Positions 1,839 to 64,000 of a stretch of DNA of 64,000 nt are shown here, piece after piece. Made by a program: the position numbers and the translations under genes. Within the stretch, counting starts at the first letter, position 1, and each line of letters starts with the position of its first letter. The notes beneath the pieces are model-generated. The model saw nothing but the letters and a program-made list of their open reading frames with translations, did no database searches and was not told where the DNA came from. Source of the DNA: Mobula hypostoma (lineage: Eukaryota); NCBI RefSeq assembly GCF_963921235.1, contig NC_086097.1, positions 51,896,001 to 51,960,000 on the forward strand, in the 5' to 3' direction.

Positions 1839-3989
1839 TTTACTAGTTCAGCTTTTTCATTGTGCTTCCTCAAGTAATGTTAAGAAGCCACGGTATATTA
1901 TAATTGCAATTTAGCAGTGAAGTAAACCCAAATTCTGTGACTTAACTGTCAACAGCGATATCTGCTTTGACTTTCGTACTGTAAGCTGTAAATCAATCTC
2001 CTTCTGTTGTCAATTCATTGAGCCACTTAGTATAACAAAGCTCTCTGATCTACACCATTTTCTTTGAATTGTGCTCTCCATTCTCAATCTATATACATTG
2101 AAATATCTTTCAGCTAAATGGGTAAGAGTTCTAAGGAACTAACACTGATGTACTAACCACCTGGTCTGCACTGCTCAGTGATTCTATTTCAATATGGTCA
2201 GGATGGAATCAACCTTCACGGCTTTATTGTCATCTTGACTTCATCAAGTTCCTGAGCCACTCTTCAACCCTCTGCAGATGTGCCAACTAGAGCAAGGCAA
2301 TCTTGCTATAACCTTGCATCCTTAATCTGATTTCCCTCTCCACATTGGGCTCATTGCTGTCAAAGCACTGGTAGTAGAAGGCCCAGGAGAATTTAACACA
2401 TGCAGTTCATCTACATCAATCAGTTCTGCCCAATCTCCTGTTCAATCTCAAATTGACTAGGCAGAATAATAGTTTGGCATGGGCTAGATGGGCCGAAAGG
2501 CATGTTTCCGTACTGTACGGCTTTATGACTCTGTCTTTGGACTCCCTAATTCTCTCCTATTTTGAATCTATAATCTTCAACAGTACAGTGATCTCAGAAT
2601 CTCATCCTTGCTGAGCACAGTCCTCTCCAAGCAGCACCTGAGTTTGCCTGTTTCTTTATGTGCCAAAGCTCATGAAAATGGAAATATGAATTAATGGTGG
2701 AGTTGAAATAAACAGTTATTGTTTATGGTGTCGTCTGACTGCAGTTCACTGTTCCATGGCCAAGAATTATTCAGCCCTCGCAACACATTCTTTGTGTTTG
2801 GTGACCTTGGTTCTACTGTGATCAAACAAAGCTTGAGATAAGTTCAACATATTTCTGGTCTGATATACCTAATTAAATACAATATGAAGACAGATTTAAG
2901 TTTCTTTCTGCATTTTTATCAGGAGATTAAATACCAAAGGAAATGATTAAAACATGAGCCTCTGGCATTACTTCTGTCAGGTAGATACATAAAAATTGTG
3001 CAGTTTAACCTTTGCAACTTGCTTATTCACAGACAGGCAGGTTACGATATTGCCTTTATCTCAATTGGTTAGTTAAGAAAATGACAGAAAGCCACATGTC
3101 TTGCGTTTGACAGCTTTATGATGATCATTTTGCCGATGGTATAAAGTAATTCAGGCAGTAAACCAAATGAATCCTTTGTTCTTTAAGTCTTTGTAAACCG
3201 CAAAGCTCTAAAGAATTCTTGGTCCTCAAAGAATTAAATAGCTTCAAAGTTGTAGATTAACAATGATTGGCATCATGAATGTTTGCTAAGAAAGGGTAGC
3301 AATTGACTGTATTAAGTATGTAAGTACCTCTGTTAGATATTAAATTTATTTCAGATTCTTCCAGGCCATGTAATTGGCACTGATGCATATCAAATTTCAT
3401 CAAGACCACAACATCAAAAGAGGCTATTATGCACAATTGTTTATTTTCCACAAGATCTTTCTCTCACCAAATATTCTTTCAGTACCTCCTACAGTTTTCT
3501 AGCTTGAATCTTTATTAAATTTCCTTTTAAATGTATCTGAACTATATGCCTCAGTTAGCACTACATTGCACATCCTAAATTCAATATCAATGTTAATTAT
3601 TGGATTTATGATTTCTATTTATGGAATCCCCACAAGTAGAAGCATTTTCTCCATATTTATTCTATCAAGCCCTTAAAGACCTCTAACAAGCCACTAGAGA
3701 AAAGAGCCTGAATCTGTTCCAGTTTCGCTTTATACCTTCTTGGCACTAATACCAGGCTTATGAATTATTTTATACCTTCTCCAATATACCTTTATGATAT
3801 GAGGAACAAAGCTGTGCAAAATTATCCAAGTGTGGTCCAACCAAGATCCAACACATGTCAAACATTACAACTTAGGGACTCTCTGCATTATGAATTGTAT
3901 TTGCAAGTGTGATCAGATTTGATTTCATTGGATTTGATTTACTGTCTTGATTTAAAATTGTGATGGGAACAGGTGGGAAGCTATTCTGA

Positions 3990-4295
3990 GCAACACCCCC
4001 ACTGTGAACAACCCCACTGTGAATGTAAGCTGAGTGTGTGCACTGATCTGCAGTGCAATGAGTTTGCACTGTCTCTGGCTGGACAAGCAGTCAGTGTGAA
4101 ATGCCCGGGGCTGTGCATGCACTATTAACAGGAACTCAGCAGGCCAGGCAGCATCTATGGAAAAGGGTACAGTTGCCACCTTGGCCTGAAATGATGACTG
4201 TACTCTTTTCCATTGATGCTGTCTGGCCTGCTGAGTTCCTCCAGCATTTTGTGTGTGTTGCTTGGATTTCCATCATCTGCAGATTTTCTGTTGTT
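3990..4295. mobile_element. Penelope-like pLTR-derived inverted-repeat element with 16-bp TSD
   Basis: Inverted arms ggaactcagcaggccaggcagcatctatggaaaag... / ...cttttccattgatgctgtctggcctgctgagttcc; exact direct repeat tgggaagctattctga at 3974-3989 and 4296-4311. Confidence 0.7.
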
Positions 4296-4536
4296 TGGGA
4301 AGCTATTCTGACCCAGTCAACAGGAAACCAAAGTTATTTTCACCAGATAACAAGAGTTTGATAACTAAAGCTGGCTGTCGGAAGTCTACTTGGGATTAAC
4401 TGAAGGAGACATTGCAAATTATTATTCATTTTGATGCATACTGACTTCATCTTATTCAACATGATCCCTGTTGTATATCATTGATATTAGAAATTCAACA
4501 GAACAGGAAACCTTTTATTTGTTTTCAGATTACACA

Positions 4537-5757
4537 TTTTGAGGATGTGACTAAACACATTGATGAAGGAAGAGCAGTAGGTGTAGTGTATATGGATTTC
4601 AGCAAGGCATTTGATAAGGTACCCCATGCAAGGCTTATTCAGAAAGTAAGGAGGCATGGGATCCAAAGGGACATTGCTTTGTGGATCCAGAACTGGCTTG
4701 CCCACAGAAGGCAAAGAGTGGTTGTAGACCGGTCATATTCTGCATGGAGGTCAGTGACCAGTGGTGTGCCTCAGGGATCTGTTCTGGGACCCTTACTCTT
4801 CGTGATTTTTATAAATGACCTGGATGAGGAAGTGGAGGGATGGGTTAGTAATTTTGCTGATGACACAAAGGTTGGGGGTATTGTGGATGGTGTGGAGGGA
4901 TGTTATAGTTTACAGTGGGACATTGATAGGATGCAAAACTGAGCTGAGAAGTGGCAGATGGAGCTCAACCCAGATAAGTGTGAGGTGGTTCATTTTGGTA
5001 GGTGAAATATGATGGCAGAATATAGTATTCATGGTAAGACTCTTGGCATTGTGGAGAATCAGAGGGATCTTGGGGTCTGAGTCCATAGGATGCTCAAGGC
5101 AGCTGCGCAGGTTGACTCTGTGGTTAAGAAGGCATATGGTGTATTGGCCTTCATGAATCGTGGAACTGAATTTAGGAGCCAAGAGGTAATGTTGCAGCTA
5201 TATAGGATCCTGGTCAGACACCACTTGGAGTATTGTGCTCAGTTCTGGTTGCCTCACTACAGGAAGGATGTGGAAACCATAGAAAGGGTGCAGATGAGAC
5301 TTACAAGGATGTTGCCTGGATTGGGGAGCATGCCTTATGAGAACAGGTTGAGTGACCTCGGCCTTTTCTCCTTGGAGCGACGCAAGATGAGAGGTGACCT
5401 GATAGATGTGTATAAGATGATGAGAGGCATTGATCGTGTGGATAGTCAGAGGCTTTTTCCCTGGGCTGAAATGGCTGCCACAAGAGGGCACAGGTTTAAG
5501 GTGCTGGGGAGTAGGTACAGAGGAGATGTCAGGGGTAAGTTTTTTACGCAGAGCGGTGAGTGCGTGAAATGGGCTGCTGGCAACGGTGGTGGAGGCAGAT
5601 ATGATAGGGTCTTTTAAGAGACTTTTGGGTAGGTACATAGAACTTAAAAAATATGAGGGCTATGGGTAACCCTAGTAATTTCTAAGGTAGGTACATGTTC
5701 GGCACAACTTTGTGGGCCAAAGGGCCTGTATTGTGTTGTAGGTTTTCTATGTTTCTA
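4537..5757 (+). mobile_element. 5'-truncated CR1 LINE (RT domain, premature stops)
   Basis: YMDFSKAFDKVPH, SGVPQGSVLGP and FADD motifs; LERRKMRGDLI C-terminus; ttctatgtttcta tail. Confidence 0.95.
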
Positions 5758-53496: not shown

Positions 53497-56402
53497 AGGT
53501 TAAGTAATGGTCTGGTAGATGGAGTACAATGTGGGTGAAAGCAAGATCATCCACTTTGGAAGTGAACATAGAAGATCAATTTATTATTAAAATAATGAAA
53601 GATTGCAGCATGCTGTCGTGCAAAGGGACTTTGGAGTACTTCTGCATGTCTATAAGGAGAGAATGAGTCATCTGGAACTTTACTCACTGGAATTCAGAGA
53701 AACAAGAGAGAATCTTACAAATTATAAAAAGGGATAGAAAAGATAGAGGCAGGAAAGGATTTTTCCCCACTGGTAGATGAGACTAGAACTAGGGGACATA
53801 GCTTCAAGATTCAGGGGAATAGATTTAGGAGAGAGATGAGGAGGAATTGCCTTTCCCAGAAGAGGAATGAATCAATGCAACTCTCTGTTCAGGGAAGCAG
53901 TGAGACTGCCTCAGTAACTTTATTCTCAATATTATTTTCCATATAATAAAAATAGAGTTCTCAATATTGTTTATTTATTATTATTTCTTTCTCTGTAATT
54001 GCACAGTTAATCTTGTTTTTTGTCTGCCTTTGTTTGTTTCTGTGTAACTTTTCATTGACTTTATCGTGTTTCTGTGTATCTACTGTGAATACCTGCAAGA
54101 AAATGAATCTCAGGCTAGTATATGGTGACATAAACGTACTTTGATAATAAATTTACTTTCAACTTTGAACTATTGAAAATAGATTTTAGATAGATTTTTG
54201 CATTGTAGGGAATTAAGGGTTGGGGGGGGGTGGGGGAGGTGGCTGAAAATGAGTCCACAGCCAGGTGGGACATGATTTTATTGAATGACAAACAGGTTAG
54301 ATGGACTGCATGGCCTACTCCTGATCCTATTTCTTGTGTTCTCATGTTAAAAGAAAAATGTGTAATCGATTGCAATCAAATGGCGTTATGTTGTTTTACT
54401 TTTAAAGTAATCTCCTCAACTTTGACCTCTTTTTCATCCTTACTTCTTTGAGCAACCTTTTGATTATCATCCATAATATCTTTATTGGTGTTGATATTAA
54501 ATCTTGTTTGATAACTGTTGTGTATTATGCTTCAGGTTGTTTTACTATATTAAAAGAACTATACAAATGACAAGTTTTTATGTACAGTAATTTCTATTAT
54601 AGTTTGATTATTTTTCTATTTGAAAGCCAATTCAATTATTATACAGGTAACCCTCTTTGTACTTGATCTCATTGTCTTTTGAACTGACTGAAATCTGACA
54701 CAGAAGTAGATGATCACTGATTGAACCATCCCCACCAAATCCATCCCCCAAACACTAGCCAGTAGCTATAAGCCAGGGTTTTTATCCTGCCGGTTCGGAT
54801 GAAGATCAGGTGCCCTAATCAAGGAGCCCGGTGGAACACAGGGAAAAGGAGATTAACTGAAATGAGTAGTTAATGGACCGGACTGTGACATTTTGACTGA
54901 ATGGTAATGTAATTGAACTCAATTTTGTATTTTGGTTTTCATTATCAAACAAGTTTTGTTTCATGTCTAATTACCTAGGCAATAATGTACTTATTTTTTT
55001 TCATGAACTGTGTAACAAAAGGCAAAGGCTTTGATGAGGAAAACAATTCTCTACAAAGTGCAATTTATCAATGTGCCTCACAAAGCACTGAAGTTAAAAC
55101 ATATTTGCTGACATTTTCACTGATTGCTTAGTTCAGAAAAAAATGTATGTATATTTACATTGTTCTAAAATGATTATGAATGCGATGAATAGCAATCAAT
55201 TTTAACATTTTAGAGACTTTGTATTATTACAAAGCTGTCCAGATTTATTATTCTAGCTGTACACCATAACATTTTGATGGCAAAAATCGTCATAGTTCAC
55301 TTGGCTTACGATCCGGCAGCCTGGCATCCTCTAATCAGTAGGAAAGGTCACACAGTGTTGATGTTCCTTAGCTAAAGAGGAGAACATGGTTTATTCATAC
55401 TTCCTCAAATTTATCAGGCCTTCCAAAATTCCTCCATCAAACTCGACTTGTGCAGTTCACATTTCTCAGCTCTATATGACTATGGCTGTGCTTGGTTGTC
55501 TCAAAATTATGTCCTTGTGGATTAAAGCACTTGAAGGCAAACTAGATCAATAAAAGGTGGAAAACATGGCTGATTTCAGAACTGGTGCATATCATCATCT
55601 CTTTATGTTTGACCCGAATGATTGGAAAGAAAAGTAAACCATGATAAAACCAGACAGAATACATTTTTCAGATACTTTTAGTATTATTTAGTACTTCTAG
55701 TACTTTAGTAATCCCAGAGGACAGGACAGTAGCAAATGTACCTTTGTTCAAGAAAGGAAATAGGGGTAATCCAGGTAATTCTGGTTAAGATGGTGCTACT
55801 GAGCACGTTCAACAGCTCCCTGGTAGTTCAAAAGAAAAGGAATTCAACTAAACATTACTAATAGCACCTTTTTGTAAGTAAATTGTGTTAAATGATCACC
55901 TCAAACAATGAAGAGGCGAGTGAAGGTGAAGCGAGTTCGGGGGACGAGCTTGCAAGTGTTGTAGAATTGACACAGATGGAGTGAGCCGTTTGGAGAGAAG
56001 TCGGGCCAGAGGAGTTCTGATGCCCGTACTGGTCTGGGTGGGAGGGTGGATCGCTCTGGATGCTGTGCTGACTTGAAGAGTTTGAGAGTGGTGAATCTGG
56101 GCTCAGAGTGAGTCACTGGGTGGCTGGGAGCCTTTCGCAGCAGTGGTTCCCGGGTGCAATCCACTGATTAGACAATTTAAACACCAGCCCAGACGGAGGA
56201 GAGAGCCGATCTTGCTCGCTTTCCCGTGTTGTTCACTGCTCTCTCCATGGTGCCAGAGCCTTTTGCTGCAGTGGTTCCTGGCTCCTACTGTGAGGTATGA
56301 GCCACTGTTTGCACAAGTCAAGCGCTGGCCCAGATAGACTGCAAAGACAAGGTGTCAGGATTGCAGACGAGAGCTGATTTCACTCGCTCTCCGCAATGGT
56401 GA

Positions 56403-56887
56403 TGTTGCAACGAATGAGGCGAACTCAAGCACAGGACATGGGGCACAGAGATTTAGTTACGATTCAGATGCAGGCGTGAGTGTTGAATGGCAAACAGGAG
56501 GGAGAGCAGGAAGGCAGGAGACAGGCAGAATTTATCTTGACATGGAGAGACTGGTTTTCACAGGTAAACCTCGGAACTGGAGTAGAACTTAGAAAACTGA
56601 TCTTGACACGGAGAGACTGAGTTTCAGAGATAAATCTCAGTACTGAAGCAAAACTTAGGGCACACAATCCTAAGTGGCCGCGAAGCGTTAATTATCACAC
56701 TGGCAGAACCAACGATCTGGCAACTAGTGGGTGCAAAGCCAGGGTTCTTATGCTGCAGGTCTTGATGAAAACCAGGTGTGCCGTCATCAAAGGGAATTAG
56801 GAGAAACTGGGGAATTAACAGTTGAAACCATGGCACAATCAAAGGGAATTAGGAGAAAATAGGGAATTAACGATCAGGACTGTGATA
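56403..56887. mobile_element. Solo LTR with 5-bp TSD
   Basis: TGTTGC...GTGATA termini (terminal CA decayed); ggtga at 56398-56402 and 56888-56892. Confidence 0.75.
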
Positions 56888-57272
56888 GGTGACTCCTCTC
56901 TCAATGGCACTGAAGCTATGAAGACTGCCCTGGCTGTTGTAAGCAAACACATTTCATGGTTGTATAATTTATCCTTTCTTTACAATACTATTTACGCTAT
57001 TACTCAAATATTACTGAAATATTGAACACTCCTTTCTGCTTAGCTATAAAGTCCAACTCAATATAGAATGCATTTCAACTATATACACGGTATTCTATAT
57101 AATACAACTACTATACACGGATATCCACAGCATAGGGAATTTAAAATTGTCCCATTCAGGCCTAAAGATTTAATTGTTGTGGAGTATTTCTTACTCTTCT
57201 GGAATAATGTCTTTCCTGACAAGGCCAAGTCTCTACTTGGCAGGTGAGATCTGTGGTAGTGTAAACAATCTC

Positions 57273-57690
57273 GCTGGAAATTAGAAGATTGAGGGGGGAT
57301 CTTATTGAAATGTATAAAATCCTAAAAGAATTGGACAGGCTAGAGGCAGGAAGATTGTTCCCGATGTTGGGGAAGTCCAGAATGAGGGGTCACAGTTTAA
57401 GGATAAAGGGGAAGCCTTTTAGGACCGAGATGAGGAAAAGCTTCTTCACACAGAGAGTGGTGAATCTGTGGAATTGTCTGCCACAGGAAACGGTTGAGGC
57501 CAGTTCATTGGCTATATTTAAGAGGAAGTTAGATATGGCCCTTGTGGCTAAAGGGATCAGGGGTTATGGAGGGAAGACTGGTACAGGGTTCTGAGTTGGA
57601 TGATCAGCCATGATCATACTGAATGGCGGTGCAGGCCCGAAAGGCTGAATGGCCTACTCCTGCACCTATTTTCTATGTTTCTATGTTTCT
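57273..57690 (+). mobile_element. Short CR1 3' end with 6-bp TSD
   Basis: Near-identical to the reverse complement of 10524-10945; aatctc at 57267-57272 and 57691-57696. Confidence 0.92.
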
Positions 57691-57780
57691 AATCTCAGGT
57701 CTGGGGCCTCCTCTATGGTGGTTGTAGGAGCTGACTCTGAGACTGCAAGAAGTGGTCTGACTGCTCTGAATACTTTTCTA

Positions 57781-58383
57781 CCTTTCTTCTCCTTTCCTTG
57801 GCTCTTCCCTCTGGATCTACTTTGATCCTTGTTTCTCTCCCGGACCCGGCTTCTTTCTCTCTCAGTACCGCTCTTTCTTCTTTCTAGGATGTGTATCTTG
57901 ATCTTGGGAAGGTGCACTTAGTTCACTGGAGTATTCTCTTATTAATCCTTCTATTGTGTCCTTTACAATCTGATATCTCCTCTTGGTTTACTCATCCACA
58001 ACATCATCTGATGTATCCTCAGTTTTCATATGTCCATTGACTCCTTTCTTTTTGATCTTCCATTCATCCAGCTGGGTGTTGGTCCTTGCATCTAAGCAAC
58101 ATTTTTGTCTCCCACTTGAAGTTCATGCAATAACTTTAATGCATGCAGAGTAGATTCTGGTTCTTTATACTTACAGGAGTCAACTGCTTGCAACTTTCCT
58201 GAGGCTCCTTGAAGTCGCTTCCAGCTTAAAACCAAGCTACATTTCACAAGTAACTACCTGATTAACATATCAGAAGCTTTCTCTGATATGTTGCCTACAA
58301 AAACTGTTGTAGTCGGACCACTGCTGTCTTCAATTTCATGATTCCACTGAGCATCATGGTCTTTCCTTGGTTGGCACCAACAC
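57781..58383 (-). pseudogene. RBM25: Partial processed pseudogene of RNA-binding motif protein 25 (RRM and start of the RE/RD-rich region)
   Basis: Manual translation VLVPT/PRKDH..EDSSGPTTTVFVGNISEKASDMLIR*LLVKCSLVLSWKRLQGASGKLQAVDSCKYKEPESTLHALKLLHELQVGDK/DARTNTQLDEWKIKKK..DE*TKRRYQIVKDTIEGLIREYSSELSAPSQDQDTHPRKKKE matches recalled vertebrate RBM25; contiguous with no intron; has stops and frameshifts. Confidence 0.9.
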
Positions 58384-58709
58384 CTGTTTGTCCTTTGTTG
58401 GGCAACGGTTCATGGTGTTCAGCATGGAGCCAGTTTCAGCATCATCTTAATTCACTTCCAGTTGACTCTACTGCAAATGATGGATGGATCTCCAACCAAG
58501 TTGTAGTTGTCTCAGCCTTTTAGGTCCCCACAAGGCTGGCCCTTCTGCTTTTTATCACATAAAGGCCCAATGTGGCTTGTTGGTTATTGTATTCCACTGT
58601 TGTGAATGTCATTTCCACAGGGTTATCTTTTCTCCAATATAAGTTGGATACCTGCAGGCTTCAGTTCTGTATCTTTGAAATGATGTTCAAACTCATTTTG
58701 TGGAATGAC

Positions 58710-61700
58710 CATAGAAACCATAGAAACATTACAGCACAGAAACAGGCCTTTTGGCCCTTCTTGGCTGTGCCGAACCATCTTCCTGCCTAGTCCCACTGAC
58801 CTGCACCTGGACCATATCCCTCCATACACCTCTCATCCATGTACCTGTCCAAGTTTTTCTTAAATGTTAAAAGTGAGTCTGCATTTACCACTTTATCTGG
58901 CAGCTCATTCCACACTCCCACCACTCTCCGTGTGAAGAAGTCTCCCCCTAATGTTCCCTTTAAACTTTCCCTCCTTCACCCTCAACCCATGTCCTCTGGT
59001 TTTTTTCTCCCCTTGCCTCAGTGGAAAAAGCCTGCTTGCATTCACTCTATCTATACCCATCATAATTTTATATACCCCTGTCAAATCTCTCCTCATTCTT
59101 CTATGCTCCAGGGAATAAAGTCCTAACCTATTCAACCTTTCTCTGTAACTCAGTTTCTCAAGTCCCGGCAACATCCTTGTAAACCTTCTCTGCACTCTTT
59201 CAACCTTATTAATATCCTTCCTGTAATTAGGTGACCAAAACTGCACACAATACTCCAAATTCAGCCTCACCAATGTCTTATACAACCTCACCATAACATT
59301 CCAATTCTTATACTCTGTACTTTGATTTATAAAGGTCAATGTACCAAAAGCTCTCTTTACGACCCTATCTACCTGTAACGCCGCTCTTAGGGAATTTTGC
59401 ATCTGTATTCCCAGATCCCCATGTTCTACTGCACTCCTCAGTGCCTTACCATTTACCCTGTATGTTCTACCTTGGTTTGTCCTTCCAAAGTGTGATACCT
59501 CACTCTTGTCTGTATTAAACTCCATCTCCCATTTTTCAGCCCATTTTTCCAGCTGGTCCAAATCCCTCTGCAAGCTTTGAAAACCTTCCTCACTGTCCAC
59601 TACTCCTCCAATCTTTGTATCATCAGCAAATTTGCTGATCCAATTTACCACATTATCATCCAGATCATTGATATAGATGACAAATAACAATGGACCCAGC
59701 ACTGATCCCTGTGGCACACCACTAGTCACAGGCCTCCACTCAGAGAAGCAATCCTCCACTACCACTCTCTGGCTTATCCAATTGAGCCAATGTCTAATCC
59801 AATTCACCACCTCTCTATATATAACTGGTGACTGAATCGTCCTAACTAACCTCCTATGTGGGACCTTGTCAAAGGCCTGACTGAAGTCCATGAAGTCAAC
59901 ATCTACTGCCTTTCCTACATACATTTTCCTGGTAACCTCCTCAAAAAACTCTAATAGGTTTGTTAAACATGACCTATCACGCACAAAGCCATGTTGACTC
60001 TCCCTAATAAGTCCCTGTCCATCCAAATACTTGTAGATCCTATCTCTTAGTACTCCTTGCAATAATTTACCTACTACCGATTTCAAACTTACCGGCTTAC
60101 AATTTCCCGGATTACTTTATGAGCCTTTTTTAAACAAGGGAACAACATGAGCCCCTCTCCAATCCTTCGGCACTTCACCCGTGGATACCGACATTTTAAA
60201 TATATCTGCCAGGGCCCCTGCAATTTCAACACTAGTCTCCTTCGAGGTCCGAGGAAATACCCTGTCAGGTCCCGGGGATTTATCTACTCTGATTTGCCTC
60301 AAGATAGCAAGCACCTCCCCCTCTTCAATTTGTATAGGTTCCATGACCTCACTACTTGTTTGTCTTATTTCTGTTGACTCCATGCCAGTTTCCTCAGTAA
60401 ATACAGACACAAAAAAACTATTTAAGATCTCCCCCATTTCTTTTGGTTCCATACATAGCCGACCACTCTGATCTTCAAGAGGACCAATTTTATCCCTTAT
60501 GATCCTTTCGCTCTTAATATACCTGTAGAAGCTCTTTGGATTATCCTTCACCTTGACTGTCAAAGCAACCTCATGTCTTCTTTTAGCCCTCCTTATTTCT
60601 TTCTTAAGTATTTTTTGCACTTTTTATATTCCTCAAGCACCTTATTTGCTCCCTGTTTCCTATACATGTTATACATCTCTCTTCTTCTTTATCAGAGTTA
60701 CAATATCCCTCGAGAACCAAGGTTCCTTATTCTTACTCACTTTGCCTTTAATCCTGACAGGAACATACAAACTCTGCTCTCTCAAAATTTATCCTTTGAA
60801 GGCCTCCCACTTACCAATCACATCCTTGCCAGAGAACAACCTGTCCCAATCTACGCTTTTTAGATCCTTTCTCATTTCTTCAAATTTGGCGTTTTTCCAG
60901 TTTAGAACCTCAGCCCGAGGACCAGATCTATCTTTATCCATGATCAAGTTGAAACTAATAGTGTTATGATCACTGGAACCAAAGTGTTCCCCTACACGCA
61001 CTTCCGTCACCTGTCCTAACTCGTTTCCTAGTAGGAAATCTAATACTGCATCCTCTCTAGTTGATACCTCTATATACTGATTTAGAAAACTTTCCTGAAC
61101 ACATTTTACAAACTCTAACCCGTCTAGACCTTTAACAGTATGGGAGTCCCAATCAATATGTGGAAAATTAAAATCCCCTACTATCACAACTTTATGTTTC
61201 CTGCAGTTGTCTGCTATCTCTCTGCAGATTTGCTCATCTAATTCTTGCTGACTATTGGGTGGTCTATAATACAACCCCATTAATGTGGTCATATGCAAAC
61301 ACGAGGAAATCTGCAGATGCTGGAATTTCAAACAACACACATAAAAGTTGCTAGTGAACACAGCACGCCAATCAGCATCTCTAGGATGAAGCACAGTCAA
61401 CGTTTTGGGCCGAGACCCTTCGTCAAGACTAACTGAAAGGAGGGCTAGTAAGAGATTTGAAAGTGGGAGGGGGAGGGGGAGATCCAAAATGATAGGAGAA
61501 GACAGGAGGGGGAGGACTGGAGCCAAGAGCTGGACAGTTGATTAGCAAAAGGGATATGAGAGGATCATGGGACATGAGGCCTAGGGAGAAAGAAAAGGGG
61601 AAGGGGGGAAGCCCTGAGAATGGGCAAGAGGTATAGTGAGAGGGACAAAGGAGAGAGAGAAAAAGAATATGTGTATATAAATAAATAAATAATGGATGGG

Positions 61701-63070
61701 GTATGAGGGGGAGGTGGGGGATTAGCGGAAGTTTGAGGAGTCAATGTTCATGATACTTCCTGTTTCTCAGCTCCACCCATATGGCCTCAGTAGACAAGCC
61801 CTCTAATCTGTCCTGCCTGAGCACTGCTGTAATATTTTCCCTGACTAGCAATGCCACCCCCCCCCCACCCTTTATTCCTCTGCCTCTATCACATCTGAAA
61901 CATCGGAACCCTGGAACATTAAGCTGCCAGTCCAGCCCCTCCTGTAGCCAAGTTTCACTAATGGCTATAATGTCATAACTCCATGTGTCAATCCACGCCC
62001 TCAGCTCGTCAACCTTCCCCACAATACTCCTCGCATTGAAATAGACATGCTTCAGAAGATTATTACCACCACACACAATCCTTCTGTTTGTGACTTTGCA
62101 TGAACTTTTAACATCATTTATTTTCGCCCCTGCTCCACTATCTGCTCTGGCACTCTGGTTCTCAACCCCCTGCAAATCTAGTTTAAACCCTTCCCAATAG
62201 CACTAACAAACTTCCCTGCAAGGATATTGGTCCCCTTGTAGTTCAGGTATATCCTGTCTCTTTTGTACAGGTCCCACCTGCCCCAGAAGAAGTCCCAATG
62301 ATCTTGAAATCTGAAACCCTGCCCCCTACACCAGTTCCTCAGCCATGTGTTCATCTGCCAGAGCATCCTATTCTTACCCTCACTGGCACGTGGCACAGGT
62401 AGCAATCCTGAGATTACCACCCTCGAGGTCCTGCTTTTTAACTTCCTATCAAGCTCTATATACTCAATCTTCAGGACCTCCTCACTCTTTCTTCCTACGT
62501 CATTGGTACAGATGTGTACCATGACATCTGGCTGATCACCCTCCCACTTCAGAATGCTGTGCATGCGATCAGAGACATCCCTGACCCTGGCACCCAGGAG
62601 GCAACAAACCATACGGGAGTCACTGTCACGACCACAGAACCTGCTCCAGTTCCCTAACGCGGTTTCTTAGGAGCTGCAGCTGGATGCACTTCTTGCTGGT
62701 GTCGTTGTCAGGGACACTGGGGGTCTCCCTGACTTCCCACATCCTGCAAGAGGAGCATTCCAACATCCTGCCTGGTATTCTCTCTACTCTGAACAAACAG
62801 AACAAAACAACAACTTACCGGAACCTCCCCTCGCCTCTGCCTCTGTACGCTGAAGCCTGTTGAGCCAAAGCCATCCCACCCAGACTCAGTCCACTCCGAC
62901 GATGGCCGCTTTGCTAGACGAAACTTCGTTTATAGTGCGCTAGCTGACCGGCTGTCTTCAGCTCCTCCGCTCCCAATTGGTTAGCTGTTTAAAAATCTGA
63001 AAAAGCCCACAAATCCTCTCCTTCTTAGCTCTGACAATGGCCTGTTTGCTAGACGAAACTGCTTTTATAT
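58710..63070 (-). mobile_element. Near full-length CR1 LINE inserted in the Gypsy protease region
   Basis: ORF1 esterase 62178-62612; APE 61741-62175 (YFNARS, ISETW); RT 58905-60086 (FADD); TSD atgac at 58705-58709 and 63071-63075. Confidence 0.95.
61295..61752 (-). mobile_element. Penelope-like element 3' end/pLTR nested in the CR1 APE domain
   Basis: Splits WVELRNRK|MTTLMGLYYRPPN; carries a hammerhead-like motif at 61394-61431. Confidence 0.75.
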
Positions 63071-64000
63071 ATGACTGAAACAGCCTAGCCAGGGTACAAT
63101 TATATTTTAATTAATTTGCCGTTCACTTCTGGTGTAAGCCATATTGCTGGTCTCTTGTTAGTTTTCACTTTGTAAATCTTAAGGCTACCCAATCCTGTGT
63201 CACTCTAATCATTATCAATTTTTTCATCAACAGAAAGCAGATTACTGCTCTGTTAGGAACTGCAACTTGATTATTTAATCTTCTTCTCCTTCCTGTGCAG
63301 TCATTTATTTTTCTGTCCGACATTCCCATTGTTGCATTTTCTGCAAGTTTTGTCTCTAAAGCTGCAGTGGTCTGGTGTATGTGAGCCCGTGACACATCAG
63401 CAACACAATTTGTTCATCCAGGCAGGTTTCTGTTCCTGACTACAACTCAGTTGCATCTCTGTCTGCTGTTTCCATTGATACAGCAATTTTAATTGTCCCT
63501 TTAAATAGAAGTTGTGCTTCAGTTAGGAGCCATTTTTGAATGTTTTCTTGTAAGATTCCACAAACTAAACAATTCTCAGTGCATCATTAAACCTATTACT
63601 GAAAAAAAATATTGCTCAGACAATCTCTTCAATTCAGTCACATACGCTGAAGTGGACTCTCCTTCCTTTTGATTCCACTTATGAAACCTAAAGTGTTCTG
63701 CAATCAACAGCGGCTTTGGTTCTAACTGGTCCTGCATTACTTGCATTATATCAGCAAAGCTCTTTTCGGCTGATTTGGTTGGAGCAGATAAATCTCTAAG
63801 CAGACTGTATGCCTTTAGATCTAATGCACTCTGCAAAACTGGTAATAGCTTCTCATTGGCTATTTCACTTGCATCAAAATAATACTCAATCCATTCAGTA
63901 TACAAAATCCAGTTATCTGTTGTGGAATTAAACATGTCAGTCTTTCCCATGTAGCCACCTACTTCTGCTAATTTTTAATGATTATTATCACCCGGTATTC

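Follow-up and report, generated by a model that had tools for sequence, protein, structure and literature searches.

How did a spliced piece of a host mRNA come to lie inside an LTR retrotransposon, and did it matter to the element that carried it? The question is raised by a locus in the window analysed here (the whole stretch of 64,000 nt, G000:C1:51896001-51960000, from a host genome of 3.48 Gb), in which spliced RBM25 sequence lies within a copy, now dead, of a non-autonomous Gypsy family present in high numbers.

Anatomy of the element copy in the window

On the minus strand the copy runs from gag into protease, where a CR1 of 4.4 kb intervenes before the remaining part of protease, and then through RBM25, a pol tail interrupted by a 418-nt fragment of CR1, a polypurine tract (PPT) and the start of an LTR, which confirms the order gag, protease, RBM25, pol tail, PPT and LTR given in the original prediction. 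The features are listed below in the 5′ to 3′ direction of the element; exon labels (e2-e9, eX and eY) are our own numbering.

~64423-64186 (window-equivalent, beyond the window; G000:C1, locus L034): 5′ LTR of ~240 nt
~64185-64175 (window-equivalent, beyond the window; G000:C1, locus L034): PBS-like site
63180-63975 (limits approximate), minus strand: gag remnant with stops and frameshifts; weak Retrotrans_gag match (E=0.059), best matches Gypsy polyproteins
63071-63170, minus strand: 5′ part of protease, aligning to the protease region of P0123
58710-63070, minus strand: large CR1 LINE (RVT_1, E=1.6e-28), a later insertion with TSD ATGAC, not in other copies
58442-58709, minus strand: 3′ part of protease and linker as far as the RT start
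58435-58441, minus strand: 5′ switch point, where parent pol and host exon 2 have a 7-nt microhomology (decayed in the window copy)
58384-58431, minus strand: RBM25 48-nt in-frame cassette exon (eX), joined straight to exon 2; spliced in host contigs
57875-58383, minus strand: RBM25 e3 (58383-58245), e4 (58244-58187), e5 (58186-58033) and e6 (58032-57875), intronless, with the RRM inside
57783-57874, minus strand: RBM25, following an internal deletion of 372 nt: end of e8 (57874-57811), then start of e9 (57810-57783)
57791-57783, minus strand: 3′ switch point, a 9-nt microhomology
57691-57782, minus strand: first part of the parental pol C-terminal tail
57273-57690, plus strand: 5′-truncated CR1 fragment, a later insertion with TSD AATCTC, not in other copies
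57042-57272, minus strand: second part of the pol tail, pol stop and 3′ UTR
57029-57041, minus strand: PPT
56982-57028, minus strand: first 47 nt of the 3′ LTR, matching family LTRs; the rest is lost

Both CR1 insertions had been described as flanked by target site duplications (TSDs), and both are real: ATGAC lies at 58705-58709 and 63071-63075 around the large one, AATCTC at 57267-57272 and 57691-57696 around the small one, and other copies of the family align straight across both sites without an insert. ORF2 of the large CR1 is interrupted at window 61295-61752 by an unrelated repeat of ~460 nt, which matches many other loci and around which no TSD of at least 7 nt was found, and the 5′ end of the same CR1 contains a 41-nt direct repeat (85%; window 62894-62934 and 63029-63069).

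An LTR remnant running from TGTT to AACA had also been proposed. Its beginning, 57028-56982, matches family LTRs, but the AACA end is not borne out, as 56981-56926 compares with those LTRs no better than shuffled sequence (12/100 shuffles reach its score), and a search elsewhere in the window for the rest of this LTR gave nothing convincing. Extension beyond position 64000 did recover the 5′ LTR, which begins 188 nt past the window edge, but not a TSD matching the 3′ flank, with AACCC before the 5′ LTR and GCCAG after the supposed 3′ end. A repeat-like stretch adjoins the shortened 3′ LTR (window 56400-56930 and 54770-54888), with internal tandem units of 34 nt and 64 nt; the part at 56400-56930 has a 78% match ~2 kb away, and possibly represents LTRs of another element. 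That the copy is dead, as first stated, is seen in its stops, frameshifts and decay: the protease catalytic motif, which reads ..ELDTG.. in relatives, has decayed, and the captured mRNA has lost 372 nt (the end of e6, all of e7 and most of e8) as well as 32 nt of e3.

The captured mRNA and the host RBM25 gene

The C-terminus of a fish RBM25 led to the host RBM25 gene on the same contig as the window element, near 99.8 Mb; all nine host exons examined have AG/GT ends. A search by PWI family reached other PWI loci, presumably SRRM1-like and PRPF3-like, and was set aside. Positions 58441-57783 of the minus strand match, in order, the end of e2, eX, e3, e4, e5, e6, the end of e8 and the start of e9, at 84-94% identity per exon where blastn reported them. 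The piece had been called intronless, and the comparison with the host gene bears this out, since the window copy crosses six intact junctions between exons that are separate in the host and spread over ~29 kb. The stretch of ~55 nt left unassigned in the original prediction (58441-58384) proved to be RBM25 too: the 48-nt cassette exon follows there on the final 10 nt of coding exon 2.

Other copies, such as L007, L013, L029 and L030, retain e7 and much of e8, so that the captured piece was ~1.07 kb long with eight junctions, the number crossed across the family. Its 3′ limit lies ~28 nt into e9, leaving an internal piece of the mRNA without a 3′ end, and at neither cargo junction did the sequence contain a poly(A) or a TSD belonging to the cargo, in agreement with the first reading. 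The closest RBM25 protein to the cargo was that of a shark (P0002), so that the host is likely a cartilaginous fish; a PDB search with the RRM piece gave 0 matches. Host RBM25 also has two apparent solo LTRs of the element family 36-66 kb upstream of its first coding exon (G000:C1:99876650-99876890 and 99906400-99906640, in the L045-L049 region), probably by chance given the abundance of the family.

The cargo also records a splice form. Two in-frame cassette exons lie in the host gene between coding exons 2 and 3:

L254:3687-3734 (G000:C1, minus strand): eX, 48 nt
L254:8577-8606 (G000:C1, minus strand): eY, 30 nt

Across 14 residues a shark protein has the same peptide as eX, and neither exon was present in the fish, frog and cattle RBM25 proteins viewed. 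Both are alternatively spliced in contigs of the host organism and its relatives. According to contigs of four runs on the host gene, which we presumed to be RNA and which contain intron-skipping joints, e2 is joined to eY in 4/4 runs, eY to eX in 2, eY to e3 in 3 and eX to e3 in 3. In the element, e2 is joined straight to eX, and eY was found in 0/30 copies. This e2-eX joint was absent among the 15 of 57 joints listed for the host gene, and it may thus be either minor today or lost.

Parent family and switch points

A family bearing RT, RNase H and integrase, and having LTRs, gag, protease and tail in common with the chimera, is present in the same genome. It was located by a junction pattern. 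A generic RT query led instead to a different, younger Gypsy family (L055-L084), abundant in the genome and with long open pol frames, which was rejected as the parent. The 20-mer just upstream of the 5′ junction has 699 exact matches, and among the first 30 of these loci it runs into RT in 18, into RBM25 in 11 and into other sequence in 1. The 3′ junction gave 332 matches; upstream of the first 30 lay RBM25 in 7, a purine-rich remnant in 1, the parental integrase tail in 20 and other sequence in 2. Of eleven RT-type loci examined at length, all have the protease region in common with a chimeric copy and several also the LTRs, gag and tail; for most, there was an alignment to a Gypsy polyprotein in RT, RNase H or integrase.

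By tblastn, the parent loci are colinear with P0123, one of the "K02A2.6-like" single-ORF Gypsy polyproteins that we take to be of the Mag/SURL type, in which Pfam places protease at 293, RT at 485, RNase H at 707 and integrase at 946-1105. The parent thus shows the Ty3/Gypsy domain order protease-RT-RNase H-integrase, preceded by gag, together with short LTRs and a 5-bp TSD, whereas the chimera lacks everything from the RT start to the integrase tail. In the least deleted parental copies the two junction sites lie 3.0-3.5 kb apart, and the cargo, ~1.07 kb of spliced mRNA, takes the place of the parental RT, RNase H and integrase (~3-3.5 kb). Some RT-type copies (L145, L150 and L154) are internally deleted, with 1.6-2.4 kb between these sites instead of ~3.3 kb, and parental junction counts therefore include non-autonomous or later-deleted copies.

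Comparison with the parental relatives allowed both switch points to be mapped, and microhomologies mark the two ends of the RBM25 piece. TGCCACA (7 nt; 13/17 nt when extended) is common to parent and host at the 5′ switch, where pol is joined to RBM25 in frame. At the 3′ switch they share GAGAAGAAA (9 nt), and RBM25 continues into a shifted frame of the pol tail. At random switch points, microhomologies of at least 7 nt occur at a rate of 7e-4 and those of at least 9 nt at 6e-5. The LTR-mediated retrocopy proposed at the outset is thereby supported, in that the piece is spliced and both of its flanks come from one Gypsy family with RT-bearing members.

Copy number, mobility and age

The possibility of a once-mobile non-autonomous family, also raised in the original prediction, is strengthened by copy number and by 5-bp TSDs around full-length copies. 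The 27-mer across the chimeric junction has 1,054 matches in the genome, compared to 2,600 for its parental counterpart and 0 for both controls (up to three mismatches), so that chimeras make up ~29% of the junction-bearing members of the family. This junction filter was passed by 14/40 copies sampled by other queries, from which we estimate ~3,000 chimeric copies (2,000-5,100). The RBM25 core was present at 30/30 sampled family loci. Both LTRs were found in 11 chimeric copies, which are without RT and integrase. Among 59 further copies, both ends were detected in 13, of which 12 could be scored, and in 8/12 a 5-bp TSD matched at no fewer than 4 of 5 bases. Amplification implies past transcription, and a candidate partner family for trans-mobilisation is present, of the same age as the chimera.

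The family is old. LTR pairs have diverged by K2P 0.21 (n=11), and copies differ from the column majority by 10%, equally at all three codon positions (43 copies). A gag-protease tree of 50 chimeric and 22 parental segments was star-like, with similar branch lengths for the two types, indicating that chimeric and parental copies amplified in one old burst. Clustering by type was weak (15 label changes, compared to 19.1 when shuffled). Chimeric and parental gag-protease segments are thus interleaved, and a single origin is supported by the shared junctions rather than by monophyly, later recombination or poor resolution being assumed. Two shared variants of the cargo are linked (P=0.0015), yet all four combinations occur, which probably reflects recombination during the burst. 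In 168 nt of e3, a relative that has diverged by ~5% in introns differs from the host genome by one base and the family by five, so the capture is older than the split from that relative. Diverged spliced RBM25 ends in contigs of another relative hint that the family may occur there as well.

Probable origin of the chimera and tests of selection on its cargo

We believe that these observations are very probably explained by a dead non-autonomous Gypsy copy whose family arose by a double template switch at the microhomologies, likely a single event, and spread to more than 1,000 loci, likely by means of the parent's enzymes acting in trans. RBM25 mRNA would have been packaged together with RNA of the parent element in a particle of the latter; both this co-packaging and the trans-mobilisation are what we infer from the structure of the copies. 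Reverse transcriptase would have switched, within the integrase tail, from the element RNA to the host mRNA, proceeded along the latter from exon 9 to exon 2, and switched back to the element at the RT start. With LTRs, PBS and PPT retained and the gag-protease-RBM25 frame open, the product would have undergone transcription, packaging and integration like its parent. Amplification would have been quick after capture, alongside the parent's own burst, with RBM25 as a passenger that shortened the genome of the element. Later master copies lost parts of the purine-rich region of the cargo, after which every copy decayed neutrally; in the window copy, the two CR1 insertions and the loss of most of the 3′ LTR came afterwards.

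A useful cargo is the first alternative to be weighed, and we regard it as unlikely. In this case a Gag-protease-RBM25 fusion, with its RRM and Arg/Glu-rich region, would have aided RNA export or packaging and driven the amplification. The whole RRM is indeed included, the 5′ fusion is in frame, and in 66 segments of chimeric copies there were 0 codon columns with a stop as the commonest codon from an ATG 414 codons upstream to the junction, which makes it likely that the founder encoded such a fusion. However, the prior for an in-frame join is 1 in 3, and the microhomology accounts for it. Fixed differences between family and host in the core of the cargo (mRNA 63-625, 96 copies) were 19 synonymous and 0 non-synonymous, which would fit a constrained cargo, but the simplest reading is that the host gene kept evolving under purifying selection and the family amplified soon after capture, since quick amplification also yields no fixed non-synonymous change. 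Just past this interval there is one amino-acid difference between family and host, and it is a host change, as the shark keeps the family's residue. Variants that arose after capture also argue against a useful cargo: both of the shared non-CpG variants are non-synonymous, and there is in addition a two-base change near the end of e6.

Deletions in the cargo point the same way. The purine-rich part was deleted repeatedly, with lengths that were multiples of three in 17/30 measurable copies (43 examined) and 13/28 (59 examined). The dominant class of 66-70 nt (66-69 nt segment) keeps the net frame, as a useful cargo would lead one to expect, but outside this class only 6/18 deletions were in frame, equal to chance, and we rejected frame preservation as a sign of selection. 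Chimeras are also outnumbered by parental elements at the junctions. Shared variants in gag-protease, synonymous to non-synonymous, stood at 19:25 in chimeric and 15:26 in parental copies, which speaks neither for nor against selection. No preserved copy was found among the best 150 of 5,555 protein-level candidates, which were 64-85% identical to shark RBM25 and mostly contained stops. At the level of sequence, we thus found no sign that the RBM25 part mattered to the element, and its decay appears neutral.

A more far-reaching proposal is a transducing retrotransposon that was spread by its cargo and preserves an older isoform skipping the 30-nt exon. Its founder would have expressed the in-frame fusion and given rise to thousands of RBM25 copies, and the silencing directed at these would have driven changes in the synonymous sites and the splicing of host RBM25, an essential gene; we consider the probability of this to be similarly low. 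We give less credence still to camouflage or conflict, in which the host sequence would have protected the element against silencing, or host RBM25 would have come under pressure from small RNAs made by thousands of element copies. Precedents are found in available passages on gene capture and epigenetic conflict in maize (10.1101/777037) and on Masc retrocopies that make silencing RNAs in a moth (10.1101/2022.04.04.486979), and the captured isoform is unlike the modern joints listed. The synonymous distance between family and host, 19/123 sites and unpolarised, slightly exceeds the 13 expected from copy age, but this excess is not significant (P=0.07). In the comparison of the host gene with contigs of relatives, the 40 of 264 matches listed were all intronic. 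CpG decay in gag-protease did not differ between chimeric copies (0.86) and parental ones (0.84; P=0.37), and methylation camouflage was rejected accordingly; in the cargo it was 0.79, at sites ascertained separately.

It is very improbable that a CR1-made processed pseudogene of RBM25 was put into a Gypsy element with a target deletion, the composite then multiplying. CR1 is abundant here and made both insertions in the window copy, but LINE-made processed pseudogenes are marked by the mRNA 3′ end, a poly(A) and a TSD of their own, which this internal piece does not have, and ~3 kb of the parent was replaced rather than interrupted; the microhomologies at both ends largely refute this origin. 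Segmental duplication of one chimeric locus has nothing in its favour beyond the shared structure of the copies and is practically refuted, as similarity among copies stops at the LTRs, copies are bracketed by distinct 5-bp TSDs, and the CR1 inserts are private to the window copy.

Comparison with known systems

With a capture by template switching as the preferred origin, the closest described cases are the LTR-mediated retrocopies of animals, for which the passages available of Tan et al. (2016, PMC5131818) give a median of 6 bp of microsimilarity at switch points and, as secondary spread, 18 insertion sites for nine fly retrocopies. The RBM25 element resembles them in that a partial mRNA replaces part of an element ORF, in sense orientation, with microsimilarity at the switch points (7 and 9 here), without poly(A) or a TSD of its own, and with secondary non-autonomous retroposition. 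It thus appears, in its sequence, to agree with them in every respect compared, secondary spread included. It differs from the cases in those passages in scale, with few insertion sites there compared to more than 1,000 here and ~29% of junction-bearing members, and in the persistence of both the parent and the host donor in the genome despite the age of the event (10% diverged).

According to the same passages (PMC5131818), maize Bs1 and human HERV-K/FAM8A1 are likewise LTR elements with spliced host mRNA and with switch points common to their copies. Bs1 differs in having 1-5 copies and three donor genes, whereas here there is one donor, thousands of copies and no sign of retained function. 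The Pxyfem retrocopies of Masc in the diamondback moth, in the part of the report available (10.1101/2022.04.04.486979), also consist of partial spliced host cDNA between LTR-element sequence in multiple copies, but as eleven tandem copies with a silencing function, in contrast to the dispersed integrase-type insertions found here, for which no function is shown. The mechanism itself is already known (Tan et al. 2016, PMC5131818), and the scale is far beyond the examples described in those passages. A literature search, with subscription journals, Repbase and Dfam outside its scope, found no matching case of a retrotransposon family bearing RBM25.

This family provides a fully mapped capture of a vertebrate mRNA by an LTR element, for which a single genome contains the donor gene, the parent family and the two switch points; the chimera accounts for close to a third of the family. 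Host exons, once captured, are here seen to amplify a thousandfold without sign of function. For the host genome, RBM25 copies of this kind inflate pseudogene counts, and can mislead RBM25 annotation and read mapping. At the same time, the element copies are a fossil of an ancestral RBM25 mRNA, including a splice form that is not among the strongest modern joints.
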